Shown here: piece by piece, positions 19,602-36,385 of the stretch
How the letters are laid out: the number at the start of each line of letters is the position of its first letter
Numbering within the stretch: position 1 is the first letter of the stretch
Assembly (NCBI GenBank): GCA_049281195.1
Contig: JBAPRR010000428.1
Span: 8,267 to 72,266 of the forward strand
Source: Acidimicrobiales bacterium
GTDB taxonomy: Bacteria > Actinomycetota > Acidimicrobiia > Acidimicrobiales > CAVXTF01
Direction of reading: 5' to 3'
DNA length: 64,000 nt
The notes under the pieces: model-generated
Database searches by the model: none
The model's input: only the letters and a program-made list of their open reading frames with translations
Told to the model about the DNA's origin: nothing
Made by a program: the position numbers and the translations under genes

Positions 19602-22600
19602 ATGTCTGACCTGAGCCTCGCTGCCCGGGGGGTCGTTGGCATTTCGGGCACAGAAGAGCTCGAAGAGGTACTGCTGGTACCCGAAAGCCAGACCGATCCC
19701 CGAACGATCGAAGCAGAGATCGGGATAGGCCGCAGGGTGGTAGTTCTCGCCAATCTGGGCCTCGCTCCTGACGCCTCTCCGGTCTCATTACAAGCCGGGT
19801 CAGTCGTTGCCGATGCCCTCGACTCCTGGCAGGGGCCGGGAACGGTTGTTATCGCGGGGAACTTTCTGGATCTCCGGCGATGCCAGGACGCCGACAGCGG
19901 CGTTACTGCGCAACCCGATGCCGACGCTTCCACGACCAAACAGGCCCTCGACACTCACTCGCGACTCAGCAAGTCGCTTCGCGACTTCGCGTCAGGGCCT
20001 GAGAGGCGTCTGATCTGCCTGCCCGGGAGCACCGACTCAGCGATACAGACGGACCCGCAAGTGAGGGCGGCCATCGAGAAGCTCGGCGCCAACGTCGCAC
20101 CGGCAGTCGACCTCGTGTGCGAAACCACGGCAGGGGCGAAACGGGTGAGGGTGCTCCCCGGTCCTGTGTCGGGAGCAAAGGGTGATGATTTTGCGACTTC
20201 GCCGGAGCCCGAGCCCGAAGTCGGTTGGCAAGGCGGGATGGATCGCCTGGCGGACGCCTCGGCGCTCGAACGTCTGGTCAAGTCACGAACCGTCTACCGA
20301 TGGCTGAGCGGTCACGCGTGGCTGTTCGCAATTCCGTTCCTGATTGTCCTCGTTCTGAGCCTGCCCGCGACGTCGTGGGTCTTCAGCCACGTGCTACCGA
20401 CACATCCGGGGCCCGTTAAGGCCCTACACCGCGTGCGCGACACGCGCCTCGGCGCCAGGCTGCTGGTAGCTGTTCTGGTAGCGATCGTCGAGATCGCGGC
20501 GGCCGGCATAGTCCTGCTCTTCGTTGGCAGGAGACGCTGGTCACGCGTCGGTGGAGAACGCCTGGAGCGGGTGTTCGGGTTCGACGAATTCCATTCAGGG
20601 GCCACGGGCAACGACGAAGCTCGCGACACTGCGACAGCCCTTGTCTCTGCCGGATATGCCGGTGTCGTATCGGGCGCCACGCTTCAGGCGGAACTGACTC
20701 ACTTGGGAACCGGGTTCTTCGCATGCCCCGGGACCGCCGGTGAGGTGGTCGAGGAGTATCCCGGCCGGATGGGCCTCCCTCCTGTTTTCCTCGCGCACCG
20801 ACAGGTCGCCTGGGTGGAGCTCGAAACGGGAGCCGATCTTCACGCCCGACTCCTTTTGGCTCGATCCGACATCCCGGCGGCGACACTCCTCGAGCGCATC
20901 GCTGCACGGCATCATGCGGAACACGAGACAACCCCGGTCGTGGTCGCTGCCCACCCGAGCGGCGGATCGTGGCCACCGGCCCCCGACCTCTCCTCGACCA
21001 GAAGGCGCTCGCGCAGAGCACGTCGACTTGCGTCAGTTTCCATTGCGATCGCCGGTCTGCTCGACCTCATCACTTCGGTAACCCCTCCACTTAGAAGTCA
21101 CTTGCACCTGGTGAGGCAGGTACTTCCTCTTGGTGCGACCCAGGCCGCGGGTGCCCTGGTGGCACTTGCGGGGCTTGGCCTTCTTGCTCTGGCAAGAGGG
21201 GTCCGGCGCGGACAGCACAGGGCTTGGGCTATTTCCGTAGGAGTCCTCGCGAGCACCCTCGTGCTTCACATTGCACGAGGAGCGGACATAACCGCATGGG
21301 TCGTCTCAGCGGTCGTTCTGGCCATACTTCTGGTGTTCCGCCAGGAGTTTCAAGGTGCTTCCGACCGTCCGTCCCTACGGTCGGCGATCATCGCTCTGGT
21401 CGGAGGAGTCGTAGGTATCACCATCGTCGCGACGATCGCGGCTCAAATTGCGATGCTTCTGCATCACGACCGTCGCGTGAGTTTCTGGACGACCGGCGAA
21501 GCCGTAGCGGAGCGCTTGGTGGGCGTTCAGACGATTGTGTTGCCGAAAGGCCTGAACGGCTTCCTTGCACCAAGCCTGGCCACGATCGGGGTGAGCCTCG
21601 CCGCCATAGCCCTGTGGCTGGCTACGCGGCCTGTCGTAGACAGACACACCACTGGGCGATCCGCAGAGGCCAGAGCGCGCGACATCGTCCGGCGCCACGG
21701 AGCCGGCACGCTCGACTATTTCGCCTTACGGAGCGACAAGAAGCGCTTCTTTCATCGCGACAGCGTGGTGGCTTACGCCATCTACGGAGGTGTTTGCCTG
21801 GTCTCTCCTGACCCGATAGGTCCTCTGACTGAGCGGGCACAGACATGGGCCGCGTTCCGGAGATTCGCCGACAGTCGTGGATGGGTGCTCGCGATCATGG
21901 GTGCTTCGGAAGAGTGGCTGCCGATCTACAGGGCGACCGGCATGCACGAGATCTATATCGGCGATGAGGCGGTCGTAGACGTCCAGAAGTTCTCGCTCGC
22001 CGGGGGACACATGAAGGGACTCCGGCAGGCCGCGAACCGCATCGCCAAGTACGGCTACACGGCAACATTCCACGATCCTGCGACCCTCGACCAGACAACC
22101 GGAGCAAAGCTCGCAACTCTGATGGCGCAGAGCCGCCGCGGCGAGATGGAGCGCGGTTTCTCCATGACGCTCGGCCGCATATTCGATCCCAGAGACGAGG
22201 GGCTCGTTCTGTGCGCGGTGTGGGCACCGGACGGGACTCCTGCGGCGATGTGCCAGTTCGTCCGGGCATCGGGAATCGGCGGCTACTCACTGGACCTGAT
22301 GAGGCGCGATCGCGGTGAGCACCCGAACGGCCTTGTCGACTTCGCACTCGTTTCGACGATTGAGTACCTGCGCGAGAAGGGAGCGCGCGGGCTCAGTCTC
22401 AACTTCGCCGCGATGCGCTCGATCCTCGATGGGGAACGCGGCGACGGCGTGGCCCAGCGAGTCGAACGCTGGGCACTCAAGAAGATGTCCTCGTTTCTCC
22501 AGATCGAGACCCTTTGGCGCTTCAACTCGAAGTACGGACCGTCGTGGATTCCCCGCTATATCGTCTACGACACTCCGGAGCACCTGGTACCCGCAGTGCT

Positions 22601-22733
22601 TGCCATTCTTCGGGCCGAGTCGCTGTGGGAGGTGCCGGTCATCGGCAAGATGCTCGGCGCAGCGGAGCGCAGGATTCACACCGATCCGGAGGACCCCGTC
22701 TCACAAAGGATCGGAACAGAAGATCTCGCGTAG
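19602..22733 (+). CDS. MprF-like aminoacyl-phosphatidylglycerol synthase/flippase family protein with an extra N-terminal region
   Basis: The C-terminal about 330 aa matches the DUF2156/LPG-synthase C domain (RHGAGTLDYFALRSDKKRFF...YSLDLMRR...KGARGLSLNFA...RFNSKYGPSW), preceded by multiple TM helices. The N-terminal about 440 aa is additional. Confidence 0.75.
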   Translation: MSDLSLAARGVVGISGTEELEEVLLVPESQTDPRTIEAEIGIGRRVVVLANLGLAPDASPVSLQAGSVVADALDSWQGPGTVVIAGNFLDLRRCQDADSGVTAQPDADASTTKQALDTHSRLSKSLRDFASGPERRLICLPGSTDSAIQTDPQVRAAIEKLGANVAPAVDLVCETTAGAKRVRVLPGPVSGAKGDDFATSPEPEPEVGWQGGMDRLADASALERLVKSRTVYRWLSGHAWLFAIPFLIVLVLSLPATSWVFSHVLPTHPGPVKALHRVRDTRLGARLLVAVLVAIVEIAAAGIVLLFVGRRRWSRVGGERLERVFGFDEFHSGATGNDEARDTATALVSAGYAGVVSGATLQAELTHLGTGFFACPGTAGEVVEEYPGRMGLPPVFLAHRQVAWVELETGADLHARLLLARSDIPAATLLERIAARHHAEHETTPVVVAAHPSGGSWPPAPDLSSTRRRSRRARRLASVSIAIAGLLDLITSVTPPLRSHLHLVRQVLPLGATQAAGALVALAGLGLLALARGVRRGQHRAWAISVGVLASTLVLHIARGADITAWVVSAVVLAILLVFRQEFQGASDRPSLRSAIIALVGGVVGITIVATIAAQIAMLLHHDRRVSFWTTGEAVAERLVGVQTIVLPKGLNGFLAPSLATIGVSLAAIALWLATRPVVDRHTTGRSAEARARDIVRRHGAGTLDYFALRSDKKRFFHRDSVVAYAIYGGVCLVSPDPIGPLTERAQTWAAFRRFADSRGWVLAIMGASEEWLPIYRATGMHEIYIGDEAVVDVQKFSLAGGHMKGLRQAANRIAKYGYTATFHDPATLDQTTGAKLATLMAQSRRGEMERGFSMTLGRIFDPRDEGLVLCAVWAPDGTPAAMCQFVRASGIGGYSLDLMRRDRGEHPNGLVDFALVSTIEYLREKGARGLSLNFAAMRSILDGERGDGVAQRVERWALKKMSSFLQIETLWRFNSKYGPSWIPRYIVYDTPEHLVPAVLAILRAESLWEVPVIGKMLGAAERRIHTDPEDPVSQRIGTEDLA

Positions 22734-22883: not shown

Positions 22884-24380
22884 GTGATCGATCTGCCCCT
22901 GCTCCTCGATATGGCCGTATCGAACGACCCCGGTCGGACTGCAGTGACCGGTCCGGATGGCCGGAGCCTCACGGGCCTTCAGCTCTCGGAAACGGCTAAG
23001 GCTGCTTCATCTCTCTTCTCGACGCTTGAAGGAACACACATCGGGTTTTGTGGAACCAGCGGCGTTGCATTTCCGGTGTCACTGTTCGGCGCTTCTATGG
23101 CGGGCCGGCCCTTCGTTCCATTGAACTACCGACTGGGAGATGATCAGCTCGGCCTGATCATCCAATCCCATGATCTCGCTGTCGTTGCCGATCCGGTCCA
23201 AGCCGTGCGACTCAGGAATCTCGGTGTGGAACGCATCTTGGAAGTTGATGAGCTTCTGGGCGCCTCGTCCGCAGCCAGCCTGGAATCACCGTTGTCGCCG
23301 GTCAGTCCAGATGACGTTGCGCTCGTGCTCTATACGAGTGGTACTACTTCGAGGCCCAAGGCCGCGATCCTCCGTCATCGGCACCTGACGACCTACATCT
23401 TGAACACCATCGAACTCGGAGCCTCGACTCCCGAAGACGCCGCGTTACTGGCCGTTCCGCCGTACCACATCGCTGGCGTCATGAACCTTCTATCGAACCT
23501 CTATATGGGCCGCAGGATCGTTTACATGAGCGACTTCGACGCGGCACGATGGCTCGATCTGGTGGAGAGCGACGCAATAACCCACGCCATGCTTGTCCCT
23601 ACGATGCTCTCGCGGATCGTGGCCACGCTTGGAGACTCTCGCGTACAAAACACCAGTCTTCGCACCATTTCCTACGGTGGCGCAAAGATGCCGATGCCCG
23701 TCATCAGAGCCGCCCTCGAACTGTTCCCGGCGGTCGACTTCTCGAATGCTTACGGACTCACAGAGACAAGCTCAACTGTTTCGGTTCTGGGCTCGGAGGA
23801 TCACCGGGTCGCCTTTCAATCCGACGATCCAGTCCTAAGAGCGCGCCTCGGGTCCGCAGGTCAGCTTCTGCCAGGCGTTGAGGTCGAAATCCGTGACGAT
23901 CATGGAACTGTCTTGCCAACCGCAGAGACCGGGGAGATTTTCGTCAGAGGTGAACAGATCGCCGGTGAGTACCTGGAAGGCAGTCGGTTAGATGACAAGT
24001 GGTTCGCAACCCGCGATCGGGGCTACATCGACAGTGACGGATATCTCTTCATCGAGGGTCGTGCAGACGACACGATCATCCGAGGTGGAGAGAACATTGC
24101 CCCTGCAGAGATCGAGGACGTCTTGCGAGAGCATGGAGACGTCGTTGATTGCGCGGTGGTTGGTATCGACGACGAAGAGTGGGGTGAGAAGGTGGGGGCT
24201 GCGGTCGTGCTGGCCCAAGGAGCGAAATCATCACCGGAGGATCTGAAGGCGTTTGCACGTCTTCACCTGAGGACCTCTAAGACTCCGGACTCGATCGTGA
24301 TCGTCGATGCTTTGCCATTCACGGAAACGGGAAAGCTTCTCCGACGCAAGGTGCGTGAGGAAGTATTCGGCCAGCTCTGA
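22884..24380 (+). CDS. AMP-dependent acyl-CoA synthetase/ligase
   Basis: AMP-binding motifs LYTSGTTSRPKAA, YGLTETS and GYIDSDGYLFIEGRADDTIIRGGENI. GTG start. Confidence 0.88.
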   Translation: MIDLPLLLDMAVSNDPGRTAVTGPDGRSLTGLQLSETAKAASSLFSTLEGTHIGFCGTSGVAFPVSLFGASMAGRPFVPLNYRLGDDQLGLIIQSHDLAVVADPVQAVRLRNLGVERILEVDELLGASSAASLESPLSPVSPDDVALVLYTSGTTSRPKAAILRHRHLTTYILNTIELGASTPEDAALLAVPPYHIAGVMNLLSNLYMGRRIVYMSDFDAARWLDLVESDAITHAMLVPTMLSRIVATLGDSRVQNTSLRTISYGGAKMPMPVIRAALELFPAVDFSNAYGLTETSSTVSVLGSEDHRVAFQSDDPVLRARLGSAGQLLPGVEVEIRDDHGTVLPTAETGEIFVRGEQIAGEYLEGSRLDDKWFATRDRGYIDSDGYLFIEGRADDTIIRGGENIAPAEIEDVLREHGDVVDCAVVGIDDEEWGEKVGAAVVLAQGAKSSPEDLKAFARLHLRTSKTPDSIVIVDALPFTETGKLLRRKVREEVFGQL

Positions 24381-24594
24381 GCATGGCTCGGCGAAGGCAG
24401 GGCCATCTCTGGACGGCGGAGGAGAGATCGCCCGAAAGAGGCCGCGGCCACGAGGCTCCCGACGACCAGTTCGTCACCGCTCCACGATTTCCGGTCCCCC
24501 GCCGCGGCGGGCGATGCCCGTTCGAAACTCGCTGCACACCCCAATGGTCGGAGGAGCATCTGGTTCGTTCGGTCCTGAATTCAAGCGCAAATCT

Positions 24595-24634
24595 ACGAAG
24601 GACCCGGCCTCCCATAAGAGGCCGGGTCCTTCGT
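24595..24634. terminator. Bidirectional intrinsic-terminator-like hairpin between convergent genes
   Basis: Perfect 17-bp stem ACGAAGGACCCGGCCTC / GAGGCCGGGTCCTTCGT with the 6-nt loop CCATAA. A second small hairpin (24639-24658) is followed by a T-rich run. Confidence 0.7.
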
Positions 24635-24678
24635 GTTCAGTAAGTTCTAGGACTTACTTTTCGCTCTTTGCCTTTGAG

Positions 24679-26127
24679 TCAGTTGTTGCCATCACCGTCG
24701 GTTGTGGTGATTCGGCAGTAGCCGTCGTCACCCGAAGGCGTTGGCTCCGCTGCCGCATATCCCGCGTCATACCCCGACTGAGAGGGGTCCGGCGGAGTCG
24801 CAATCGACCCGTCACCCATATTGCCCTCGGGGATCGGGAAGAAACCGTTGGTCGTAATGATCGATTGAATCTCCTGTCCGTACGTTTGACCGGTCGGACT
24901 AATCGGGTCAGTCACCGCAAAGCTCGACGGGTTGCAGAGGAACCCGTACGTGCCGACGAAGTTCTGCACCGCCTGACTCGTTACGGGTGGTAACGATCCC
25001 GAGTTCGCGAAAGGAAGATTCGCGTTCGAGCCGTCCGAGTAGACGTTGTAGAGCTGACGGTCCGTGAAGTAGGAGCCGTTCTGGATTGTCGTCTGGTCAG
25101 CGGTGACACCGTTGATCTCTCCGAGTTTTGACTTGGACCCCTTTCCGGGACCACTCGCCGGCTCTCCCACGCATTTGCCACTCGGGCAAAGGATCGAGTA
25201 CTTCCCGTAAGAGAAGAAGAAGATCGCGTTGCATGCGACGTCCTGGCTGAAGGCGTCAGGGTTGGAGAAGATGTCACTGACCTCGTTCTCGAAGATCTCG
25301 AAGTCGCTGACGGGCAACCCCAACCTTGTGGCCGTTGCGGAAGCACCACCGTAGGGGTACGAACCCGAAAGCCCGAGATCCGTTGCCCATGTCGATTCCG
25401 TGCCGGAACCAGACTGCGCAATGAAGACGTCGATCGGAGCGCTTGAGCCACCTACTGTCGACCAGTTAGTGGTGTTGCCCTCGTAGATGCTCGCCAGCTG
25501 GGTGTTCGTCAAGCTCGTGATGGTCTTGGACGGCGTCGACGTCGATCCGGTGCTGCAGGTCGTGCCCTTGACCGTCGTGAAGTGGAACCACGGAACTGCG
25601 TCTTCTGCATAGGCGACGAAGTTCAGGCCACTCTTGTCAGGCGTGGAGCCTGTGGTGATAGCTGCTCTTGACGAACGCGCGAAGTCGACCTGAGCGATTT
25701 CGTTGTTAGGAGGACTGGTTGGAGTATCGGCCCCCTCAAGCTCGAGCTCCTTGATGCCGTTGCCGGAGCCCAGAGCAGATTCCTGCCAGACGACGTCGTT
25801 GTAAGGGTTCAAAGGAGGAGTAAGGGTATATCCGTTCTCCCCGCCAGTCGCTGCGGTCGAGTAGCTCGACGCACAGGCGTAGTTGAGCTCTTGGTTGTTG
25901 CTGTTCGCCGTAAGCAGGTTACAGCCCGGCGAGGAGTTGTAGAGGTCCGACAACTGCTGCATCATCGCGTAGGTCGTGTAAGACCCACCGCCGTTGAGCA
26001 CAGTGTTGGCCGGAGCCACGGTCGTAGCACCGGCGGGTACTGCCGTCGCAAGAACAATCATTGATGCCGCAACTGCGGCGCTCAACACGACGGCTCCCCT
26101 CCGGTACCTCCGAAGCATCATGCGCAT
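24679..26127 (-). CDS. Secreted PstS-family (PBP_like_2) substrate-binding protein, paralog 3
   Basis: Signal peptide MRMMLRRYRRGAVVLSAAVAASMIVLATAVPAGA, then NGGGSYTTYAMMQQL and DFARSS-type PstS-like strings. ATG at 26127 is preceded by AGGAGG. No C-terminal anchor. Confidence 0.65.
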   Translation of the reverse strand: MRMMLRRYRRGAVVLSAAVAASMIVLATAVPAGATTVAPANTVLNGGGSYTTYAMMQQLSDLYNSSPGCNLLTANSNNQELNYACASSYSTAATGGENGYTLTPPLNPYNDVVWQESALGSGNGIKELELEGADTPTSPPNNEIAQVDFARSSRAAITTGSTPDKSGLNFVAYAEDAVPWFHFTTVKGTTCSTGSTSTPSKTITSLTNTQLASIYEGNTTNWSTVGGSSAPIDVFIAQSGSGTESTWATDLGLSGSYPYGGASATATRLGLPVSDFEIFENEVSDIFSNPDAFSQDVACNAIFFFSYGKYSILCPSGKCVGEPASGPGKGSKSKLGEINGVTADQTTIQNGSYFTDRQLYNVYSDGSNANLPFANSGSLPPVTSQAVQNFVGTYGFLCNPSSFAVTDPISPTGQTYGQEIQSIITTNGFFPIPEGNMGDGSIATPPDPSQSGYDAGYAAAEPTPSGDDGYCRITTTDGDGNN

Positions 26128-26268
26128 ACTTTTGAGCCTCCTTGGTTGGCAATTCGCGTGGACGGGCCGCGACCACCTGTCGCAGGCATGGCTGTCCACG
26201 AGGCGCACGTTACGAAGCGAAAGTGAACTCCACGTGACTGTTTGGTCCCATGAAGGCAAACTCTTGTC

Positions 26269-26302
26269 AATTACTAGGTGCACGTAATTACTAGGTGCAA
26301 TC
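26269..26302. promoter_or_regulatory. Two tandem 17-nt direct repeats (AATTACTAGGTGCAnnn) in the AT-richer region upstream of PstS paralog 3
   Basis: AATTACTAGGTGCACGT and AATTACTAGGTGCAATC read directly, about 140-175 nt upstream of the start at 26127. A regulatory role is inference only. Confidence 0.3.
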
Positions 26303-26473
26303 AACGCCTTTTGCGCCACACACTTGAAGCCACACGTTCAACGTTTCTCCCGTTCGCAACATAAAATTCTTTCGATTCCACTCCATACCGTCACGTCGCA
26401 GTACGCAGTTCAACGGTGGCATGGGCCAACGACTGCAGGGAAGCTGCGGGAAGCGCCGCTCCTGAAAGGTGCC

Positions 26474-26992
26474 TCAGCTGCTGGTTGGGGTCGTTAACGG
26501 AGTCGGGTACTGAAGAACCAGCAATCCGTGGAAACCCGAGGCTGAATGGTAAGTATTGCTTCCCCCGAAATTTGGTTTCCATACAAAGGACCAATGCGGT
26601 GGAATGGTCTGCGAACTAACCGGTATGTGGTCGAATACGACCTTTTGGGGCACCGAACTGAGGTTTATCCAGGTCACGGCCACTTGGTCATTGGCGTAAA
26701 GGGTTTCGGGCCAAAAGCCACTTGATTCGATCAGGATCGTATTTCCGGAACCCTGATCCTGCGTTATTGGAATGTCATGGTTGTTGCCTTCTCCAGGCTT
26801 GGTGGTAGGAGTGCTCGGAGGGGCGACCAATTGTCCTTGCGGATACGGATTGGTCGTGCTCGTCGTACTGCCGGTGCCCCCGTTTGTGGTCGAAGTCGTC
26901 GAGCCAGAGGCCTTACCGGAACTTCCGCCGCAGGCAGAGATGCAGCTTACGAACGTGATTACTGCCAAAAGGACGCCGAGGCGGCGCAACAT
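26474..26992 (-). CDS. Lipoprotein with a cupredoxin-like domain (copper ligands apparently not conserved)
   Basis: Lipobox VSCISAC-G, a Ser/Thr/Gly linker, then FWPETLYANDQVAVTWINLSSVPQKVVF...YHSASGFHGLLVLQ. This resembles the cupredoxin pattern F.P..l.v..G..V.W.N.D..PH ... Y.C..H..M.G, with Gln and Ser at the ligand positions. Confidence 0.45.
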   Translation of the reverse strand: MLRRLGVLLAVITFVSCISACGGSSGKASGSTTSTTNGGTGSTTSTTNPYPQGQLVAPPSTPTTKPGEGNNHDIPITQDQGSGNTILIESSGFWPETLYANDQVAVTWINLSSVPQKVVFDHIPVSSQTIPPHWSFVWKPNFGGSNTYHSASGFHGLLVLQYPTPLTTPTSS

Positions 26993-27014
26993 ATAAATCA
27001 GATCTTTCCGGTAC

Positions 27015-28004
27015 TCAAAGGGTTGATGGGAGACACCTCGCGAGAGTCTCGCAAGCGAAGAGCCCGCAAGCCAGCAAGAGAGGAGATGCGAGCAGCCATG
27101 ATACCCACGGCTGGCGCCACTTTCTGATCGAGAACATCATGAAGCCGAGGATGAAAATGAAGGCGATGGCCCACAACGCGGCAAGGATCCCCGCCGCGTT
27201 GTCTCCGACGAAGCTCGGAATGGTTACCGCTCTGGACGCTTTCCCGCTCCCTACTGGCTGACCGTCGAGACGAGCTACGACCACGGATCGGCCGGTTGGA
27301 AGCCATGCCGAGTTGGAGGTGACCAGTACGAGCCAGCTGCGGCCGTATCTGGGGGTCGAAATCGTCCCCTGCGAAATAGTCTCCACGTTGGTCACGGAGT
27401 AGCTGAAGTCGCCTGCGCCGTCGATCACTTGAATGGTGTCTCCGGGTTGAAGACTCGAGATGCCTCTGAAGGCGCCTCCGAAGCTCACGCGTCGACCGGC
27501 GATAACCGTGTTGCCAGGCTCACCGGGAACGATGAACTTTCCCCCTGAAGCTTCGGCAAGGCCCGGACCCATTTGGAGGTCTGCAGATGAGGTTCCGTTT
27601 ACAACAGCCTGGTGAACCCCGAGGACAGGAATGTTGAGCACCGCAACCGGCGCTCCGTTCTTCGGAGCATTTCCTTCCGCAAGGCTGAACACGGCCCGGG
27701 GGTCGCTGCTCAAGGTGTGCAGGAGCCTGTTCTGGCTCCGAGCGGCGCTGAGACCGGAGAAGACATAGAGGTAAAGGATGAACATGGCGAGCAACACGCC
27801 GGCCAGGGTCATGGCCAGTCCGATGAGCTCGACCCGTCGGCTCTTCGGTCCGCCGGAAGCCTTCGCTCCTTCTGTGGAAGTGAGGTTGTCGGGAACCTCG
27901 GCCAAATGAAGTCTGTCGTGGTTTGAACCGGCAACTTCATCTGGCGGGAACTGGCGTACAGGATCCCGTTCGAGAGGTAGCGAGGACGCGATCGTTTCAC
28001 TCAT
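27015..28004 (-). CDS. Sortase-fold membrane protein lacking the canonical catalytic His and Cys
   Basis: Aligns with class E sortases: PVAVLNIPVLGVHQAVVNGT...GPG...PGEPGNTVIAGRR...LQPGDTIQV...WLVLVTSNS...GRSVVVARL. AGHR becomes AGRR (codon 27492-27494) and TLxTC becomes LVTS (codon 27315-27317). One N-terminal TM and two C-terminal TMs. ATGA overlap with the upstream stop (28001-28004). Confidence 0.75.
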   Translation of the reverse strand: MSETIASSLPLERDPVRQFPPDEVAGSNHDRLHLAEVPDNLTSTEGAKASGGPKSRRVELIGLAMTLAGVLLAMFILYLYVFSGLSAARSQNRLLHTLSSDPRAVFSLAEGNAPKNGAPVAVLNIPVLGVHQAVVNGTSSADLQMGPGLAEASGGKFIVPGEPGNTVIAGRRVSFGGAFRGISSLQPGDTIQVIDGAGDFSYSVTNVETISQGTISTPRYGRSWLVLVTSNSAWLPTGRSVVVARLDGQPVGSGKASRAVTIPSFVGDNAAGILAALWAIAFIFILGFMMFSIRKWRQPWVSWLLASPLLLACGLFACETLARCLPSTL

Positions 28005-30478
28005 GTTTGTACGTGCGCTTTCCTGAGTCTGCGTCGAGCCCTCGGAGCGAGGACGAGCAGTGGTCCGACGATTAGACCGAGCAGGGCGGCTCCACCGAGA
28101 CCGGCGACGATCCACCGTTCCGTCCCCTGAGCTAGGGCGAGGACCTCAGGCTCGAAGCCCTTACCCGGGCCTTTGGGTGGTGGAGTAGAGGCAGAAGACC
28201 TGATCACCGGTTTCGAAGTCACCGGCGGTGCGGTCACCGGGCTAGTCGAAGGAGTCGAAACCGGCGTGGTGGCGACGACCCCGCTCGTGATCGGAGTCGT
28301 CGTATTGACGCGAGTGGTGGGGATCGGAGTCCTAGGAGCGGTCGGCGTTGTCGTTTTTTTCCCAGTGGATCCGCTGGAGCTTCCCGGAAGAGCCGGAGGA
28401 GTTCCGTTGCAGGACGACTCCGTGTAAGGGAACGTGCTCGAGATTGTTTGTCGGGCCTGGTTGTAGAGACTTTGAGTCAACGGCACGTATCCGGTAGGCA
28501 TGGGGACACTGCTCGTTCCACCCTCGTACGAGTAGCAAACGAGGTTCGTTAGGAGGTCCCCTTCCGCTTGCGAATTCGCGGGTGTCTGAGCGGATGTAGG
28601 AACGACGGCGTAGGTGACTAGCGGCATCGGGTAAGCGAGGGGATCCCCGGTGTCGTCGTAGTTGTACGCCAAAACGCCATTCGATCCAACCGTCGCATCT
28701 CCAAGGGCCGCGTCGATGGATTTCTGTGAAGGAGTTACGAAAACCCCGGCGGCATTTTGAATCGCCGCGGAGTTCAGGCCGAGGTACGAAGCCTCTGACC
28801 AGTCGAGCGCTCCAAACCCTGCGGTGGGGTGTTGGGTTCCCGTGGGAGGTGCTGCACCACCGGAAAAGACATAGCCGCGCAGCCGGTACGCCTGCAGCTC
28901 GGGTGTCGAGTCGAATTGATATTGATCAGTCGCCGACGCAAGCACCGGCAGATCTGAGTAGGGAGTGCACGACGTGTAAGGCCAAACCGCGCTGCCATTG
29001 CCGTTAGGAGGGGGCCACGCCACCCCGGCTGTGGGCGGGGTCACAAGTGTCGTCGTCGCGACATTCGGATCGGTGACGCTTTCGGGAGTCGGCACCGGTT
29101 GGCCGTGCACTTTCAGGGGAACCGTTACCGTTATCGGAACATTCGGAGCACTGCAGGCCCAGTTCGTCACCTGGTAGCTCGAACCGCTCGCGGTGCTCGA
29201 GAAGAACATCCCGAAGGCGCCCGGCGCCAATGTACCGGAAGGAACCGGGTTCAGAAGATCGAACGTGTCGTAATTATCGGGACCGGTGGTGTCTCCCGAC
29301 TTTGTTCCACACTCGTAAATCTTGTTGCAGTCCAGGGGAGGCATTACCAGATCGGACCCATAACCCTCCGCGTACGTACTGGTTATGAGCCCGGCAACCA
29401 TGTTCGGTGTCAGCTCGTAGGTGCTCACGGGGAACGATTGGGAATCTGCCTGATCAAAGTCACCGTCCAGGAATCCCATCACGGTCGCTGATACCGCGAT
29501 AGGGATGTATTTCACGCTCATACCCGAAAGCGTCTGTTGTTGGGCCGTGTCTTGTGGCTCGTCGGTAAAAGCGACGGGGACCGTCCCGGTAGAAAAGTCA
29601 GAGATGACCTGGTCGGTGTTGGTGGCGACGTTCAGGGCGGATACACCGCCGGCGCCGGTACATGTGGCGTCGACGGCAGCAGGAAGGAAATGTTCGACAC
29701 TGAACGCGCTTTCGGTCTGGATCTGCGGATCTGAGGTCGGACACCCGTTGGTCGTTGATGCGAACGTTATGGGAATTATCGCCGTGTTGGCAGAGGTCTC
29801 GTCAGTGCTCGTGGCGCCATTCGGCAGGTCCTCAACTTCGATGCCACAGTAGTCAGGTCCGTTGTCACAGTAGAACGGCACCTTTGGATCTGCGTTCGAG
29901 ATGATCGGATCGGCCGGCAAGGGCGCGTTCCCATCCCCCGACGGTTGAAACTGGGTCGGGTAGCTGGCAGTCGCCGTGCCGTCCGGCTCCACGGGAATCG
30001 CGATCGGACTGAACGAAACCTGATCGGGATCGAGACCATTTGCACATTGCGGGTCGCCGCCGGGAACGATCTCGGGCGGATCTGTTATCGGGCAGTACGC
30101 GACTCTCACGAAATCGGTCGTCGGGAAGTTCGTCATGTCTATGTATACGTACTCACCGTTCCCGACGTTGGTGGTCGGGCCGATGGTTACCGTGGGACAA
30201 GACGAGGAGCAACCCGAGCCGATTTGGACGGTCACGCATTGCGACACACCGCCCGGGCAGTTCTGTGGCGTGTCTGCGACGGCGGCGGAGTTGAAGACGT
30301 TGCCCGCAGGAGTGGAGAAGAGCACCGCGGAGAACACGAACAGCGCGATGCCGTAGCGCACTAAGCGGACGCTGTTGAAGGTAGACGCACCGGGGCGAGC
30401 AGGGTGTGACCTGCGCTCAGGGCCCCGCACCTTTTGGTGCAACCCCTTCGTGCGCTTGAAGCGGATATTGAAGAACAT
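28001..30478 (-). CDS. Large secreted PstS-like (PBP_like_2) domain protein with a Cys-rich N-terminal region, Thr/Pro-rich stalk and C-terminal TM anchor
   Basis: Signal peptide VRLVRYGIALFVFSAVLFS. Central region KYIPIAVSATVMGFLDG... resembles PstS-family proteins. C-terminus reads TTTPTAPRTPIPTT...STPPPKGPGKG...WIVAGLGGAALLGLIVGPLLVLAPRARRRLRK. ATG at 30478 lies 5 nt after the upstream stop. Confidence 0.6.
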   Translation of the reverse strand: MFFNIRFKRTKGLHQKVRGPERRSHPARPGASTFNSVRLVRYGIALFVFSAVLFSTPAGNVFNSAAVADTPQNCPGGVSQCVTVQIGSGCSSSCPTVTIGPTTNVGNGEYVYIDMTNFPTTDFVRVAYCPITDPPEIVPGGDPQCANGLDPDQVSFSPIAIPVEPDGTATASYPTQFQPSGDGNAPLPADPIISNADPKVPFYCDNGPDYCGIEVEDLPNGATSTDETSANTAIIPITFASTTNGCPTSDPQIQTESAFSVEHFLPAAVDATCTGAGGVSALNVATNTDQVISDFSTGTVPVAFTDEPQDTAQQQTLSGMSVKYIPIAVSATVMGFLDGDFDQADSQSFPVSTYELTPNMVAGLITSTYAEGYGSDLVMPPLDCNKIYECGTKSGDTTGPDNYDTFDLLNPVPSGTLAPGAFGMFFSSTASGSSYQVTNWACSAPNVPITVTVPLKVHGQPVPTPESVTDPNVATTTLVTPPTAGVAWPPPNGNGSAVWPYTSCTPYSDLPVLASATDQYQFDSTPELQAYRLRGYVFSGGAAPPTGTQHPTAGFGALDWSEASYLGLNSAAIQNAAGVFVTPSQKSIDAALGDATVGSNGVLAYNYDDTGDPLAYPMPLVTYAVVPTSAQTPANSQAEGDLLTNLVCYSYEGGTSSVPMPTGYVPLTQSLYNQARQTISSTFPYTESSCNGTPPALPGSSSGSTGKKTTTPTAPRTPIPTTRVNTTTPITSGVVATTPVSTPSTSPVTAPPVTSKPVIRSSASTPPPKGPGKGFEPEVLALAQGTERWIVAGLGGAALLGLIVGPLLVLAPRARRRLRKAHVQT

Positions 30479-30483
30479 CTGCC

Positions 30484-32250
30484 TCACCCGGCCGCCTTCG
30501 TGGAGGGACGTCGCCTTCGACGGCCGAGGATGAAGACCGGCAGGAAAACTGCGGCAAGGAACACGATGCACCAGCAGGCGATCTGGACTGCAGGTGAAGA
30601 GAAGCCGAGTGCGGTCGCCGCGCCGGCCCTGAAATCTGCAGATCGCGCGTAGATACTCGGGCCACTCGTCTTCTCGACCTTCTTGAGATGCTTTAGGTAC
30701 TTCTGAGCGGCGGCCGCGGCGGGCGACGTGGTAGCGGTGGTCGATCCTTTGCCCCCAGTCGAGGGGTTCGTATCTCCTGGGGTCGTCGTACCCGTCGATC
30801 CGCCCGGACCGTTGGTGCCGGTACTTCCCGGATTGGATCCACTCGTAGTCGTAGAAGTATGGCTGCCGGACTTACCCTCCCCACCCCCACCAGATGGCAC
30901 CGTCTGGTTGGTAGTCGGAGGATTACCCCCGATGATCGAAGGTTCGCCCGGAAGGACGGTCTGTCCATCGACATATGGATTCTTGCAATCCGCCGAAGAC
31001 ACTTGCGGGGGCTGTTGTCCGCCGTTCATCCGGCCAATGGCGTTGAAGTCCTCCTGCACCAGGTTGGGTGGCAGCGGCGAATAGCCCAATACGGCCATCT
31101 GCTGCTGCCCCGCGCACGCCAGGAATTGGACGAATTGGCCCAGAGCTTGACCCTTTACAGCCGGGAACGGGGATGAAGCTCCGGTGCCGCTGCACTTGGT
31201 CGTCGAACCCGCCGCCACCAAATTCGGAGAACACGGCGTGACCAGGTAGCTGTACGAGGAAAGGGGGTAGGCGTTGGGAAGAGGGTTCGTATAGACGCTG
31301 GCGAGGTTCTGAGTCAGGTCGGCATATAGAACGGCATCCTCGAGCGCGGTTGCGTCGTTGACCGAGGTCGGTTGCACGGGGTTTCCATCGGCATTCACGA
31401 CGGACGCCACCGGGTCGCTGTGCTGAATTGCGTAAGCGGTCTCGACATAGGTGATCGCGCCATTGCTCGAAGCAGCTGCCACATAGTTGGCAGCGTTGTC
31501 CGATCCGCTCTGTCCTTGCAGGTTGTTATTCGTCCAACCCGGGTAGCCAGGAGGCACTACGGTTCCGGGGGGCGGCGTCGGCCACGTCGCCGACGGAGCG
31601 TCGATCGGCGACGCCTGCATCGCATTCTGGTAGGCAACGAAGTCCGAGTTGTCCTCGTGAAGCAGGTAGTCGGAAAGAAGGTAATTCTCACCTGACGCAT
31701 CAACCCGATACACGGGGATGATGGTGGTGCACGGCATGTTTCCCTGTATCGAAGGGGGCTGGATCTGGACGATCTGGGGAGCGCACCACGTGGTGATGAC
31801 GCCGGTGAAGATCTCCTCGATCACCTGCGTCGTCAGAACGAGGCTCTTGATCTGCGTTCCCGATTGGGACCCTTGAAGGTTGTACATGAAGGCCAAGGCG
31901 CCGGCGACGTCCGGCAGGTACTGATAAGGCTGATTCGGCTCTTCGAGGGCCTGGCCGGAGCTGTAAGGAATGTCGGAGGCACCGAAGTCGATCTGGTTCT
32001 CGGCGAAGTCGTCCAGACCGACCACAGAAGAAGAAACCTGAAAGTTGATGCTGAGCCCGTAAAGCGTGGACGCCTCACCGATCCATTGTTCGATCGCCAC
32101 GCCGGCGAAGCTGGAGCCGGTCGACTCGAGAGCGGGTGAAGCGGCGGCCTGGGTGGCCGGAGCAAGCGCGGCAAACAGCCCGACCGCGTTCACTGCAATG
32201 AACGTGGCCAGCCACTTGATACGGCGAATCCGGGTGCGGCGGAGTTTCAT
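30484..32250 (-). CDS. pstS: PstS-family phosphate-binding protein with a Gly/Thr/Ser-rich stalk and C-terminal TM anchor
   Basis: Signal peptide MKLRRTRIRRIKWLATFIAVNAVGLFAALAPATQAAA. PstS-like STGSSFAGVAIEQW...NFQVSSSVVGLDDFAENQIDFGASDIPY. C-terminus IACWCIVFLAAVFLPVFILGRRRRRP. Directly follows pstB. Confidence 0.75.
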   Translation of the reverse strand: MKLRRTRIRRIKWLATFIAVNAVGLFAALAPATQAAASPALESTGSSFAGVAIEQWIGEASTLYGLSINFQVSSSVVGLDDFAENQIDFGASDIPYSSGQALEEPNQPYQYLPDVAGALAFMYNLQGSQSGTQIKSLVLTTQVIEEIFTGVITTWCAPQIVQIQPPSIQGNMPCTTIIPVYRVDASGENYLLSDYLLHEDNSDFVAYQNAMQASPIDAPSATWPTPPPGTVVPPGYPGWTNNNLQGQSGSDNAANYVAAASSNGAITYVETAYAIQHSDPVASVVNADGNPVQPTSVNDATALEDAVLYADLTQNLASVYTNPLPNAYPLSSYSYLVTPCSPNLVAAGSTTKCSGTGASSPFPAVKGQALGQFVQFLACAGQQQMAVLGYSPLPPNLVQEDFNAIGRMNGGQQPPQVSSADCKNPYVDGQTVLPGEPSIIGGNPPTTNQTVPSGGGGEGKSGSHTSTTTSGSNPGSTGTNGPGGSTGTTTPGDTNPSTGGKGSTTATTSPAAAAAQKYLKHLKKVEKTSGPSIYARSADFRAGAATALGFSSPAVQIACWCIVFLAAVFLPVFILGRRRRRPSTKAAG

Positions 32251-32281
32251 CACAGTCTCACCTCGGCTGCTAATGCTGCGC

Positions 32282-33103
<822 letters not shown>

Positions 33104-33131
33104 CTGCGCTCTCTCTTGTCGCTTCCGTTCA

Positions 33132-34388
33132 TCAAATGTCTGTCCGTGAATCGTCGTCACCGAGCAACGCCAGAATGTCGGAGTCAACGGCGGCCATCAC
33201 CGGAGTTCTGGCGTCCTTGCGTCGTGAACTCAACTTCAGTCGCTTTCCACCGCGGGTGCGGCCTGCGATCCGTGCCAAGACGAAAAGGATGAGAACTAAC
33301 GAGATCAAGACGAACCCGGATTGATAGGCGAGGTCGATCAGAACCGGCTGGGCTTGGCGGACGTTCGTGTAAACCTCCAAGGGGAGGCTCTCTTGGGGAT
33401 TGTGGAACACATTGGCGTTCATGATCTGAGATCCGAAGGCTGTGAAGAGAAGCGGTGCCGTCTCGCCGACGATTCTGGCGATCCCGAGGAGTACAGCGGT
33501 CACGACACCCGAACGCGCCGTCGGTAGAACAACCGACCAGACCGTCCTCCACTCTGGCGCGCCTAGCGCTGCTGATGCTTCTCTAAGTCCGGAAGGAACG
33601 ACCCTGAGGACCTCCTCTGTCGTCCTCGTTACTGCCGGGAGGAGCAGCACGAACAGAGCGAGGGAGGCGGCGATGCCGGAGTAGCTGAGCCAGTGATTGA
33701 TTATGAAGATCGAATAGATGAACAGTCCGGCGACGATGGAGGGGAGGCCGCTCATTGCGGTAACGACGGTCCGGACCATCCGCGTGCCGCGCCCCCCTAC
33801 CTCGTTCAAGAACACTGCCGTCGCCACCGCTATCGGAACGCCGATCACCGCGGCCACGCCTACTTCTTCAAGAGTCCCGACAATCGCATGTTCGATTCCG
33901 ACGTGTGCCAAAGCGTTGGGCTCCGCCGGTTCGAAGCCTTTCTGCGTCTTTGTGAAGAGCGCTCCCCAGTGGATGTGTCCGATTGCCTTCAAGAAGACGT
34001 AGACGATGATGAAGATGACGAGACCGATGACGATTGCCGCCCCGGTCGTCATGATGACCGTGACGATCCGGTCCGTAGCCATCTGGGATTCAGTCAGCTT
34101 GGCCGTCACGATCCAGTACAGGACCAGGAATGCGAAGTACCAGCACAACAGGAAGCCGAAGCCGCCCGAAAGAAGGGTCAGCTGGTAGAAGAGCACCCAA
34201 ACGAAAGCAAAGGCCGAAAGGGCCGAAAGCAGCAGCAGGGCGACGTCGGACCTGGTGAAGTTCTTCGGTCTGATCGGCGACGACCGCGTTGGCCTGGGTG
34301 GCCGCGCTGTCGGCGGGACTGCAGGAGGCGCACTGTCAGTTGTTACGCCACCAGTCGCGCCTTCTGGCGGGTTTAGGAGCTGCGTCAC
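33132..34388 (-). CDS. pstA: Phosphate ABC transporter permease PstA (with a Pro-rich N-terminal extension)
   Basis: Permease core GIEHAIVGTLEEV...EASAALGAPEWRTVWSVVLP (EAA loop). GTG at 34388 forms a GTGA overlap with the pstC stop. The longer ORF to 34712 is Arg-rich shadow sequence. Confidence 0.88.
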   Translation of the reverse strand: MTQLLNPPEGATGGVTTDSAPPAVPPTARPPRPTRSSPIRPKNFTRSDVALLLLSALSAFAFVWVLFYQLTLLSGGFGFLLCWYFAFLVLYWIVTAKLTESQMATDRIVTVIMTTGAAIVIGLVIFIIVYVFLKAIGHIHWGALFTKTQKGFEPAEPNALAHVGIEHAIVGTLEEVGVAAVIGVPIAVATAVFLNEVGGRGTRMVRTVVTAMSGLPSIVAGLFIYSIFIINHWLSYSGIAASLALFVLLLPAVTRTTEEVLRVVPSGLREASAALGAPEWRTVWSVVLPTARSGVVTAVLLGIARIVGETAPLLFTAFGSQIMNANVFHNPQESLPLEVYTNVRQAQPVLIDLAYQSGFVLISLVLILFVLARIAGRTRGGKRLKLSSRRKDARTPVMAAVDSDILALLGDDDSRTDI

Positions 34389-35380
34389 AGTTCGACCCCA
34401 GCTCCACTGCGACTGCGGTTGACGATCGCCGATGCGATGAGGTTCACGACGAGCGTCAGGGCGAACAGGACGAAGCCGCACATCAGAAGGTCCTCGAGAC
34501 CATGCTGTCCGCCGGAGCCGAAGTTGATGGCGATGAGACTGGCGATCGTCGAACCGCCGTGGCCGAGAATGTGTGGCGAGATGACGAACGCCTGACCGAG
34601 GATGATCGACACGGCGATCGTCTCTTCGAGCGCGCGGCCCATGCCGAGCATCACCGCTCCGATCATTCCGCCTTTGCCGAATGGCAGCACGACCGTCCTG
34701 ATCATCTGCCAACGGCTCGCTCCGAGCGCCATCGCGGCCTCACGCTCGCCGGCAGGCGCTAGAGAGAAGACCTCGCGGCTGACCGAGGCCACGATCGGAA
34801 CGATCATCAGGCCGACGACCAGTCCCGCGATGAAAAGCGAGGCGTTGTACGGAGGGTGCAGGACCTTGAAGATCGGGATGAACCCAAGATGGTTGGACAT
34901 CCATGAGCTGATGCCGACCACGTTCGGCTGGAGCTCGAAAAAGCCCCATAGCCCGTAGATGACCGACGGGATGGCCGCGGCCAGGTCGACCAGGGCGATC
35001 AGAGTGCGCCTGCTCCACGGGGGGGCGTATTCGCTCAGGAACAGGGCGGTCGTGAGTGCTACAGGCACTCCGACTACGAGAGCGACCAGAGCCACGACGA
35101 CGGTCCCGTAGAGGGAGGCGAGTACTCCGAAAGTGGGATGGGCCCCGAGCGTCTGGTATCCCGAGGTGGTGAAGAACTTGAACCCGCGAACCTTGATGGC
35201 CGGGAGTCCGTGGATCAGGAGGAACAGCCCGATCAGGAACAAGAGGATCAGCGCGCCGTATCCGGCCCCGCGCACAGTCCCGCGATAGATCCGATCTTCC
35301 TTGGACCGCAGGTTCTTGAGTGTTATGGGGCGCGGCCCTAGGGGCGACGCCGCCCGTGGCAAATCAGCTGTCTGTGACAC
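34385..35380 (-). CDS. pstC: Phosphate ABC transporter permease PstC
   Basis: 6-TM permease with the EAA loop EREAAMALGASRWQMIRTVVLP. First gene of the operon. Confidence 0.9.
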   Translation of the reverse strand: MSQTADLPRAASPLGPRPITLKNLRSKEDRIYRGTVRGAGYGALILLFLIGLFLLIHGLPAIKVRGFKFFTTSGYQTLGAHPTFGVLASLYGTVVVALVALVVGVPVALTTALFLSEYAPPWSRRTLIALVDLAAAIPSVIYGLWGFFELQPNVVGISSWMSNHLGFIPIFKVLHPPYNASLFIAGLVVGLMIVPIVASVSREVFSLAPAGEREAAMALGASRWQMIRTVVLPFGKGGMIGAVMLGMGRALEETIAVSIILGQAFVISPHILGHGGSTIASLIAINFGSGGQHGLEDLLMCGFVLFALTLVVNLIASAIVNRSRSGAGVEL

Positions 35381-35767
35381 GAATTCCCCGCCTACCTGCC
35401 CGGTGGTCCCAGAGATGTATTTGTCGTAGGCGCCGGCTGTGTCGCCGGCTCGGCTATCAAGCTCGTAGTCATGTGACTGCAGAACTGAACGTCAGGGACG
35501 CTAGGTCTCGGAGGTTAACTAAACGCGAACTTTTCGTGACCTGCCGATGATCCCTGCATGAAACTCTAGAAGTAGACGAGTTCGCGTTTTATCGACTCAA
35601 TGTGCTGGGAGTACTCGAAAGCCGCGCATTGTGTTTGCATCGACACAAAGACACGTCGGGCTATTCGGGGCGACTGGCGCGCACTTTATTAACCCAAGCA
35701 AGAATATTGCGCCTGCCGACCTCGATGTCACGTAGAGCTGAACCCGGAAGAACCATGGCTGGATCAG

Positions 35768-36385
35768 ATGCACATTAGAGAAGCGACTCCTGAGGACGCG
35801 TTGGCGATCGCGGACGTCCACGTGCGGTCTTGGAAGTCGGCATACCCGGGTCTGCTCCCTCAGGACTACCTCGACCAGCTGCGCCCAGAGCACCGTGTGG
35901 CCCAATGGGAGACCACACTGGCTTCGACTCACTGGCCGGGTAGCGGAATGTTCGTTCTCGTGGACGGTGCAGACGGGATACGGGCCGACGGGATACGGGC
36001 CGACGGGATACGGGCCGACGGGATGCACGGGATTGCGGCTGACGAAAAACAGGACGTGAAAGGGTTCTCGCACCTGTGCCCGACGCGTGACGATGATCTC
36101 GATCCTGCGACCACGGGAGAGATCACGTCCATTTACCTCGCCCCGGAAGCCTGGGGCGGAGGAAATGGAGTTGCCCTGATCAAACGATCGCTCGACCAAC
36201 TGGCGACTGCCGGCTACGAGACCGCGACCTTGTGGGCACTCGACACCAACACCAAGGCTCGCCGCTTCTACGAGATCGGTGGATGGCGGCATGACGGAAC
36301 CACCAAGATTCATGACTGGGGGCAATTCGTCTGTACAGATGTTCGCTATGTACTCGATCTGACCGACTGGCCTACCCGAATCTGA
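35768..36385 (+). CDS. GNAT-family N-acetyltransferase
   Basis: IREATPEDALAIADVHVRSW... and the acetyl-CoA binding-like region IYLAPEAWGGGNGVALIKRSL...ARRFYEIGGW. Confidence 0.85.
   Translation: MHIREATPEDALAIADVHVRSWKSAYPGLLPQDYLDQLRPEHRVAQWETTLASTHWPGSGMFVLVDGADGIRADGIRADGIRADGMHGIAADEKQDVKGFSHLCPTRDDDLDPATTGEITSIYLAPEAWGGGNGVALIKRSLDQLATAGYETATLWALDTNTKARRFYEIGGWRHDGTTKIHDWGQFVCTDVRYVLDLTDWPTRI
35972..36031 (+). repeat. In-frame 15-nt tandem repeat (GACGGGATACGGGCC x3 plus one diverged copy) encoding (ADGIR)n inside the GNAT gene
   Basis: Units 35972-35986, 35987-36001 and 36002-16 are identical. The fourth copy (36017-36031) has diverged. Confidence 0.9.

Follow-up and report, generated by a model that had tools for sequence, protein, structure and literature searches.

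A conserved Pst-type cluster of uncultured Acidimicrobiales combines tail-anchored binding proteins with a sortase-fold protein that has lost its catalytic residues

The 64,000-nucleotide (nt) stretch of DNA analyzed here, called the window and used for all coordinates below, comes from an uncultured Acidimicrobiales bacterium of soil. It carries a cluster of phosphate-uptake (pst) genes in which the transporter genes are followed by genes for binding proteins with C-terminal membrane anchors and by a gene for a membrane protein with a sortase fold, lacking both the catalytic Cys and the catalytic His and referred to here as the pseudo-sortase. Judged from its sequences, the cluster encodes a Pst importer whose receptors are tethered in an unusual way and to which an unreported pseudoenzyme would belong as an accessory. 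We favor, at roughly even chances, a Pho-regulated variant of Pst in which the binding proteins are tethered to the membrane and the non-catalytic sortase-fold protein acts as an accessory subunit in a docking role.

Seven tightly spaced genes occupy positions 26474-35380 of the minus strand, on which all genes of the cluster and the features mapped within them lie. They encode, in order, PstC, PstA, PstB, a PstS of 588 residues (aa), a PstS-fold protein of 825 aa, the sortase-fold protein, and a cupredoxin-like lipoprotein. The list of open reading frames (ORFs) and a check of the junctions agree with the initial annotation of this DNA on the coordinates; the successive junctions measure -4 (GTGA), 28, 31, 5, -4 (ATGA), and 22 nt, and the genes may well be read as a single transcript. 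Scanning 24300-36000 for terminators and promoters gave chance-level counts and nothing between the genes, and no stable hairpin was found 3' of the lipoprotein gene (z = 1.2). Since no PstS gene lies 5' of pstC, the true order is transporter first and binding proteins after, as had been noted initially, instead of the canonical pstS-pstC-pstA-pstB, and relatives keep the order pstC-pstA-pstB-pstS. An eighth gene, which the initial annotation did not include, encodes a third PstS-like protein (24679-26127) and follows the lipoprotein gene after 343 nt; by synteny it is part of the conserved cluster.

The Pst translocator is readily recognized. PstC (34385-35380, 331 aa), a phosphate permease of the ATP-binding cassette (ABC) type, scores 252.7 bits with the NCBIfam model TIGR02138 (cut-off 196.45) and matches PF00528. 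PstA (33132-34388, 418 aa), the permease whose gene shares the GTGA overlap with pstC, reaches 232.2 bits with TIGR00974 (cut-off 193.45). The ATPase PstB (32282-33103, 273 aa) has TIGR00972 as its best match at 317.3 bits, slightly under the cut-off of 343.2, and PF00005 at 3.3e-34. The TIGR00974 match in PstA covers residues 107-377 only; ahead of this conserved core stand about 106 extra residues with two additional hydrophobic segments, an N-terminal extension that could be a contact site for accessory proteins.

The gene for the pseudo-sortase (27015-28004) encodes 329 aa that match the sortase beta-barrel family of Pfam (PF04203) at 3e-15, above the gathering score. The Foldseek matches of its AlphaFold model are all sortases, for a model that is itself weak, with a mean predicted local distance difference test (pLDDT) of 59.9 and values below 50 in the loops around the old active site. 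Among solved structures, the protein comes closest to 5GO5 and 5GO6, two class E sortases of Streptomyces (5GO6 at 4e-9). In alignment to these two, AGHR has become AGRR, with loss of the catalytic His, and TLxTC has become TLVTS, with loss of the catalytic Cys; the corresponding segments of the window protein are IAGRR (27489-27503) and LVLVTSNS (27309-27332). The best NCBIfam sortase class is class E (NF033747), at 66.8 bits against a cut-off of 160, while the models for classes C, D, F, and GN all score far below their cut-offs and the generic TIGR01076 gives 34.6 against 39.35. Relatives of the protein are named "class E sortase" or "sortase A" in public annotation, and on the evidence of their sequences they fail the defining catalytic features of these enzymes. 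Full-text literature searches turned up no account of sortases that lack the Cys or are inactive, nor of sortase homologues encoded within pst operons.

Loss of the catalytic residues is not confined to the window protein. Cys and His are both missing in 29 of 29 close homologues, and the Cys position is Ser, Ala, or Thr in 79 genomic copies. Because the genome scan relied on two peptide patterns, one of which demanded Arg or Lys at the His site and so biased the count there, the residue census was redone on an unbiased profile search, which covered 1.84 billion representative proteins. This search returned 501 matches below 1e-30, and residues were read in the best 150 of them; the pseudoenzyme family would thus comprise at least about 500 clusters at 50% identity. 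Among these 150 representatives, the Cys position is occupied by Ser in 109, by Ala in 27, by Thr or Gly in the rest, and by Cys in none, and the His site is Arg in about 75%, His in about 16%, and Lys, Ser, Gly, or Ala in the rest. R239 of the window protein aligns with the Arg of sortase strand beta8; about three quarters of the representatives have Arg here, and R, Q, H, K, V, L, or A is found in the genomic set. Since both Ala and Gly are tolerated at the Cys position, a conserved Ser nucleophile is ruled out, and with nucleophile and catalytic His missing, the sequences indicate that the protein cannot be a cysteine transpeptidase and would neither cleave nor transpeptidate. The conserved Cys residues in the third helix (ACGLFACE), considered as a relocated nucleophile, were rejected since they are missing in distant clades.

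The family shares a topology of an N-terminal helix, the barrel, and two C-terminal helices linked by a basic loop (RRWRQ), with LLPxT[L/M/F] at the very end. In the window protein, these elements are TM1 (27750-27827), TM2 (27126-27197), the loop (27105-27125), TM3 (27039-27104), and a terminal LPSTL (27018-27032). All of 135 full-length representatives (100%) have the Pro of this LPxTL motif, 99% have a Pro in the third helix, and the ending conforms to LP[AGS]T[LMF] in 120 of the best 150 representatives. From the charge distribution and the helices, the motif is predicted to lie on the outer membrane face, the side on which a sortase would encounter its sorting signal. The pseudo-sortase could accordingly be read as a substrate instead of a partner: a housekeeping sortase would cut the extracellular LPxT/L and link the protein to peptidoglycan, making it a membrane-to-wall hub beside the importer. 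The recurrent ending with its invariant Pro and the external placement of the tail by helix order and basic loop would suit such a role, as would the extracellular PASTA domain, a peptidoglycan-associated module, of several relatives. We nevertheless regard this as unlikely, as the residue after Thr is hydrophobic rather than Gly or Ala and is the last of the protein, a distant clade ends in LPNLL without the Thr, and neither a true sortase nor an LPXTG protein is encoded within the window. A scan of the window for true sortases (TLxTC together with GH) and for LPXTG or LAXTG found none, its two regular-expression matches lying in non-coding frames.

IAGRR is among the best conserved segments of the family, even though the site is non-catalytic, and the gene is embedded in a phosphate operon. 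Both facts could point to a pocket for an anionic ligand, formed in the old active site by Arg171, Arg172, often Arg239, and Ser or Thr. The protein would then be a sensor or regulator of phosphate capture and not a dock, with phosphate, polyphosphate, a lipid-linked pyrophosphate, or teichoic-acid phosphate as candidate ligands; lipid II is the second substrate of true sortases. To this idea we attach a small chance. It is drawn purely from residue chemistry, His is still present in about 16% of the representatives, and the confidence of the model is too low for defining a pocket. The cytoplasmic N-terminus, variable and of low complexity, also has no evident output domain.

The two large binding proteins are encoded directly ahead of the pseudo-sortase. 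The first of them (30484-32250, 588 aa) matches PBP_like_2 at 5.5e-23 and the PstS model TIGR00975 at 148 bits, below the equivalog cut-off of 205, in line with its initial description as PstS-like. It consists of a signal peptide (32140-32250), the binding domain, a stalk rich in Gly, Thr, Ser, and Pro (residues 441-515, 30706-30930), a conserved juxtamembrane segment (30592-30654), a transmembrane helix (30523-30591), and an RRRRRP tail (30505-30522). In alignment with E. coli PstS, the ligand residues F11, S38, D56, R135, S139, and G140 are kept, T10 is replaced by Ser, and T141 by Glu; M. tuberculosis PstS-1 has Asp at the T141 position. Because the phosphate-ligand positions are kept, this protein is plausibly a true phosphate receptor.

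The second anchored protein (28001-30478, 825 aa) has no Pfam match, and a sequence search of solved structures was also empty; a partial match to the NCBIfam PstS model was found at 2.3e-9. Its AlphaFold model, built with 43 homologues, has a mean pLDDT of 79.3, with most of the core above 90. Structure comparison with Foldseek places PstS of Xanthomonas, M. tuberculosis, cyanophages, and E. coli at the top (template modeling score, TM-score, 0.72-0.80; E-values down to 2e-12), and profile-profile alignment by hhalign relates its family to that of the 588-aa protein with 98.4% probability. According to the model, the fold is that of PstS, and the protein is thus a PstS homologue, as the initial annotation had supposed in calling it PBP-like. 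Following the signal peptide, an N-terminal beta-sandwich (about 29744-30265) resembles neocarzinostatin, macromomycin, and the C-1027 apoprotein (TM-score about 0.75, Foldseek) and precedes the PstS-fold domain (about 28379-29731). The C-terminal part contains a Thr/Pro-rich stalk (residues about 703-784, about 28163-28372, pLDDT below 50), the juxtamembrane segment KGFEPEVLALAQGTER (28115-28162), a transmembrane helix (28043-28114), and an RARRRLRK tail (28019-28042). The hhalign alignment retains the equivalent of D56 and, in the second lobe, Ser-Gly, while the equivalent of R135 is Ser both in the window copy and in the family consensus. The full set of phosphate ligands is therefore not present, and the ligand may differ from phosphate.

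Both proteins thus have the signal peptide, low-complexity stalk, single hydrophobic helix, and polybasic tail described in the initial annotation, and both have the hydrophobic segment and positively charged end of a sorting signal. As also stated there, an LPXTG or LAXTG motif is missing from the two proteins and from the rest of the window; such motifs were not found in the orthologues of either protein, nor did the orthologue alignments contain a conserved Thr-Gly-type scissile motif ahead of the anchor helices. Among the 120 best homologues of the 588-aa PstS, 109 have the helix and basic tail, and an LPXTG-like string occurs in 2. In the orthologue alignments, the stalks are hypervariable, and the last 60 residues or so are conserved. 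Anchors of the PstS type read y.R.daL..A, followed by a helix with GPPL and then RRR; those of the 825-aa type have a short amphipathic segment, R-[W/Y/F]-[I/L]-L-P opening the helix, GPLL inside it, and RRR after it. That these juxtamembrane and intramembrane motifs stay conserved after a free-running stalk suggests a binding partner at the membrane, for which the sortase-fold protein, being translationally coupled, is the first candidate to consider.

Given the degenerate triad of the pseudo-sortase and neighbors without a sortase motif, the tails are most simply taken as permanent transmembrane anchors, with the sortase-fold protein as a non-catalytic partner. Of the surface-tethered phosphate-capture module with processing by the sortase-fold protein proposed initially, the tethered Pst cluster stands, and the enzymatic anchoring or processing is not supported, with His and Cys lost and no sortase motif in the neighbors. 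We consider it quite improbable that the protein is after all an active atypical sortase or Ser hydrolase that cleaves non-LPXTG tails and so links the binding proteins to the wall or releases them. An enzyme of this kind would account for tails that match a sorting signal in all but the motif, for the tight coupling of its gene to those of the binding proteins, and for the replacement of Cys by Ser in most members, and motif-less tails are known to reach the cell wall in the case of ZnuF (PMC12445094). It would, however, have to work with Ala, Gly, or Thr at the Cys position in about a quarter of the representatives, leaving no conserved nucleophile, with Arg, Lys, or Ser for the catalytic His in most members, with a third triad residue that varies in the genomic set, on anchors devoid of a scissile motif, and in a protein scoring far under the NCBIfam cut-offs for sortase classes.

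We scanned one genome per GTDB species for the locus and obtained 76 loci, all from metagenome-assembled genomes (MAGs) and mostly from Acidimicrobiales/Acidimicrobiaceae of soil and peat, with a distant group labeled Pseudonocardiaceae or Actinomycetota. The window proteins were then compared with all six-frame ORFs of these loci. At least one pst-family gene stands beside the sortase-like gene in 73 of 75 loci; pstC or pstA is found within 10 kb in 53 of 56, and pstB likewise in 53 of 56. Where sufficient upstream sequence is available, a binding-protein gene directly precedes the sortase-like gene in 58 of 65 loci, and 55 of these 58 binding proteins end in a transmembrane helix, the three exceptions being frameshifted assemblies. 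Two homologues on megabase contigs show the identical eight-gene order between different flanks. The co-occurrence of anchored PstS and sortase-like genes and the conservation of the neighborhood, both raised by the initial annotation, are thus seen in the relatives, and since the gene order recurs in dozens of species, the arrangement goes far beyond chance.

The distant clade has the gene order pstC, pstA, anchored PstS, anchored 825-aa protein, two secreted proteins, sortase-fold protein, and pstB, with 4-nt overlaps. Lying between pstA and pstB, the sortase-fold gene is there inside the transporter operon. In the distant-clade locus L064 (4736-9317), three genes, all before pstB, separate the anchored PstS gene from the sortase-fold gene: one for a very divergent version of the anchored 825-aa protein, one for a PstS-family protein of 335 aa, and one for a protein of 303 aa in which Ig-like repeats are combined with a Pro/Thr linker. 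This recurrence bears on whether the sortase-like, lipoprotein, and extra binding-protein genes are simply functionally unrelated neighbors of pst, as the 343-nt gap before the third binding-protein gene might suggest. We find that very hard to believe for an order that returns in about 70 species with sortase-like identities down to 29-35% and different flanks, that includes 4-nt start-stop overlaps, and that in the distant clade has the sortase-fold gene between pstA and pstB.

Three family members from the unbiased search share the module, one of them with a PASTA domain and one with the His kept. An extracellular PASTA domain before the barrel was seen in P0240, P0242, P0289, and P0291 and in locus L080, hinting at contact with peptidoglycan; these PASTA-bearing relatives are still found beside a binding protein with neocarzinostatin-like and PBP domains and pstCAB. 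A 980-aa protein, P0200, that joins neocarzinostatin-like, PBP, and sortase domains was considered as Rosetta-stone evidence and rejected, as it comes from a frameshift-prone long-read MAG and has no intervening helix; the fusion is probably an assembly artefact.

Upstream of pstC, 129-150 nt from its start, lies a PHO-box-like pair of 11-nt direct repeats, GTTCGCGTTTA and GTTAACCTCCG (35509-35530, minus strand), followed by a -10-like TAGCGT. The consensus, GTTCACC, and the 11-nt spacing match those of actinobacterial PhoP sites. Of 43 orthologous regions upstream of pstC, 23 contain an equivalent two-unit site between -110 and -168, as against 3% of control segments. The pstS promoter of Streptomyces likewise has a two-unit, 11-nt PHO-box architecture of direct repeats (PMC7866108). 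A perfect 11-nt inverted repeat was observed at 35521-35531 and 35579-35589, with 47 nt between its arms; as one arm coincides with the first PHO-box unit, the other is an inverted copy of this unit further upstream of pstC. A second PHO-box-like site, AGTCACGTGGA GTTCACTTTCG (26218-26239, minus strand), is located some 90-110 nt ahead of the gene for the third PstS-like protein and is followed by TAACGT. The window copy falls narrowly under the scan threshold, and the site is conserved in loci L001, L002, L004, L005, L006, and L009. Because of this conserved site, the third PstS-like gene probably has its own promoter. Just upstream, at 26269-26299, the perfect 14-nt direct repeat AATTACTAGGTGCA occurs in two copies, 17 nt from start to start, and may be a binding site for a regulator. 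Both PHO-box-like sites fit control of the cluster by phosphate starvation, which we infer from them.

These elements can be assembled into a lineage-specific variant of the high-affinity Pst importer that occurs in some Actinomycetota besides uncultured Acidimicrobiales. The translocator would consist of PstC, PstA, and PstB, and the 588-aa PstS and the 825-aa PstS-fold protein would cross the membrane through the Sec pathway. Each receptor would be kept on the cell by its long disordered stalk and by a C-terminal transmembrane anchor that is permanent and takes the place of the N-terminal lipid with which Gram-positive bacteria usually anchor such proteins. The pseudo-sortase, having kept the barrel and three-helix topology and lost catalysis, would be a stoichiometric accessory subunit, whose old substrate groove or conserved transmembrane helices may dock the conserved juxtamembrane and transmembrane segments of the tethered binding proteins. 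Docking would concern above all the 825-aa type, whose gene is immediately upstream, and would hold the receptors at the transporter. With its invariant Pro, the LPxTL tail on the predicted outer face might serve as a built-in pseudo-substrate and could fill the old groove. The non-copper cupredoxin-like lipoprotein and the unanchored third PstS-like protein would complete the set, with expression probably driven by a PhoP-type regulator through the PHO-box-like repeats. In a more general form, which we put forward only tentatively, the Cys-less family as a whole would be a non-covalent hub, with an Arg-lined groove that holds either its own LPxTL end or the juxtamembrane segments of tail-anchored PstS proteins and thereby gathers stalked phosphate receptors about PstCAB.

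Several points weigh against the docking variant of Pst. Contact of the sortase-fold protein with the binding proteins or with PstCA is itself something that we infer from the sequences. The position of the LPxTL tail cannot be read from a model so weak near the old active site, and the tail of the distant clade, LPNLL, has no Thr and so resembles a sorting motif only in part. By analogy, the motif-less tails could possibly be cleaved by some other route: ZnuF of Corynebacterium diphtheriae, with a similar motif-less tail, reaches the cell wall by a route that needs none of the six known sortases, so that tails of this kind are not always inert anchors (PMC12445094). PHO-box matches within the window number 9 against about 6 expected, which is not above chance, and the case for the PHO boxes therefore rests on conservation across species. 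The related sequences all derive from MAGs, several of them with frameshifts. P0275 (L083), a fusion with a family 2 glycosyltransferase whose 3.5-kb contig shows no pst gene, may be an exception to the pst linkage. In view of this fusion and of the PASTA-bearing relatives, the ancestral role of the family may have concerned the cell wall and not phosphate.

Compared with canonical PstSCAB of E. coli, Streptomyces, and M. tuberculosis (with its lipoproteins PstS1-3), the window cluster has recognizable PstC, PstA, and PstB and shares the PstS ligand residues in the 588-aa protein, with an acidic residue at T141. It differs by placing pstCAB before pstS and by using a C-terminal stalk and helix in place of an N-terminal lipid, and it adds two PstS-fold proteins, the sortase-fold protein, and the cupredoxin-like lipoprotein. 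PstA is also longer at its N-terminus, by the approximately 106 residues mentioned above, and the cluster is without phoU. With the class E sortases (SrtE1 and SrtE2 of Streptomyces coelicolor, SrtE of Thermobifida fusca), which are its closest sequences, the pseudo-sortase shares the beta-barrel and the N-terminal helix. Unlike them, it lacks the catalytic Cys (TLVTS) and His (AGRR) and has two extra C-terminal helices and the LPxTL end with its invariant Pro, no LAXTG or LPXTG substrates are nearby, and it belongs to a pst-cluster setting in 73 of 75 loci.

The receptor design has a counterpart in the oligopeptide-binding proteins of the archaea Sulfolobus solfataricus and Aeropyrum pernix, which combine a signal peptide cleaved by signal peptidase I, a binding domain, a Ser/Thr stretch that is glycosylated, and a transmembrane segment at the C-terminus (PMC3387779). 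Those proteins bind other substrates and have no sortase-fold partner. Glycosylation of the window stalks is conjectural. Closer in lineage are the actinobacterial proteins ZnuE and ZnuF of C. diphtheriae, which serve in nutrient capture and whose genes accompany an ABC importer in the znu zinc cluster; heme-uptake proteins have been mentioned as having a similar C-terminal region (PMC12445094). ZnuE and ZnuF differ from the window proteins in not having substrate-binding-protein folds, and no pseudo-sortase is reported in the znu cluster (PMC12445094). The window family may bear on a question posed in Corynebacterium, namely the fate of secreted proteins with a sorting-signal-like tail and no sortase motif.

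Inactive relatives of membrane proteases can act as client-binding scaffolds, as do the iRhoms among the rhomboids. The likeness lies in a fold that formerly cut segments near the membrane and is kept without its catalytic residues; fold and organisms are unrelated, and the binding of clients by the pseudo-sortase is suggested by analogy only. Sortases are treated as enzymes by definition; if a large, conserved branch were shown to lack the nucleophile and yet to be under selection in phosphate operons, the annotation "class E sortase" would be corrected and a much-studied fold would gain a class of pseudoenzymes. Should the hub reading hold, ABC importers would gain a new class of accessory subunit, and the sortase fold would have its first non-catalytic use. 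The cluster would also illustrate an alternative build of a high-affinity importer in monoderm bacteria of soil and peat, based on stalked, tail-anchored receptors with a dedicated membrane partner.

The lipoprotein encoded after the pseudo-sortase (26474-26992, 172 aa) has an ISAC lipobox (26927-26953), a Ser/Thr/Gly linker, and a cupredoxin-like domain. It matches nothing in Pfam and NCBIfam, even at E = 10. A profile of 14 orthologues compared with solved structures supports the initial label "cupredoxin-like", with matches to the cupredoxin domain of nitrite reductase (1.1e-7), plastocyanin (3e-4), and amicyanin (6e-3). In this alignment, the first copper-ligand His corresponds to a conserved Gln in a "PQ" motif (WINLSSVPQK, 26642-26671), and the position of the Cys ligand is not conserved among the orthologues. 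The type 1 ligand set of His, Cys, His, and Met is thus incomplete, and the sequences suggest that the lipoprotein is probably copper-free. Orthologues follow the sortase-fold gene in many clades and are missing in some. The third PstS-like protein (482 aa) matches PBP_like_2 at 5.7e-10 and TIGR02136 in part; it is Cys-rich and has a signal peptide, with neither a C-terminal anchor nor a lipobox. Its gene is found at the equivalent position in most Acidimicrobiales loci.

The cluster is flanked upstream by a GNAT acetyltransferase gene and nuoN, and downstream by an AMP-dependent ligase gene. Within the GNAT gene (35768-36385, plus strand), a perfect 15-nt tandem repeat, GACGGGATACGGGCC, runs for 3.5 copies (35972-36024) and encodes ADGIR repeats. 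In one relative (L002/L003, 1-1971), a gene for a CYTH-CHAD protein, absent from the window, stands ahead of the cluster; CHAD domains are linked to polyphosphate, which makes this gene a further neighbor with a tie to phosphate. At 19602-22733 (plus strand), the window encodes a 1043-aa protein with a C-terminal domain of the lysyl-phosphatidylglycerol synthase (MprF) type, and a gene with an MprF-type domain is also present past the third PstS-like gene in locus L001, on the opposite strand.

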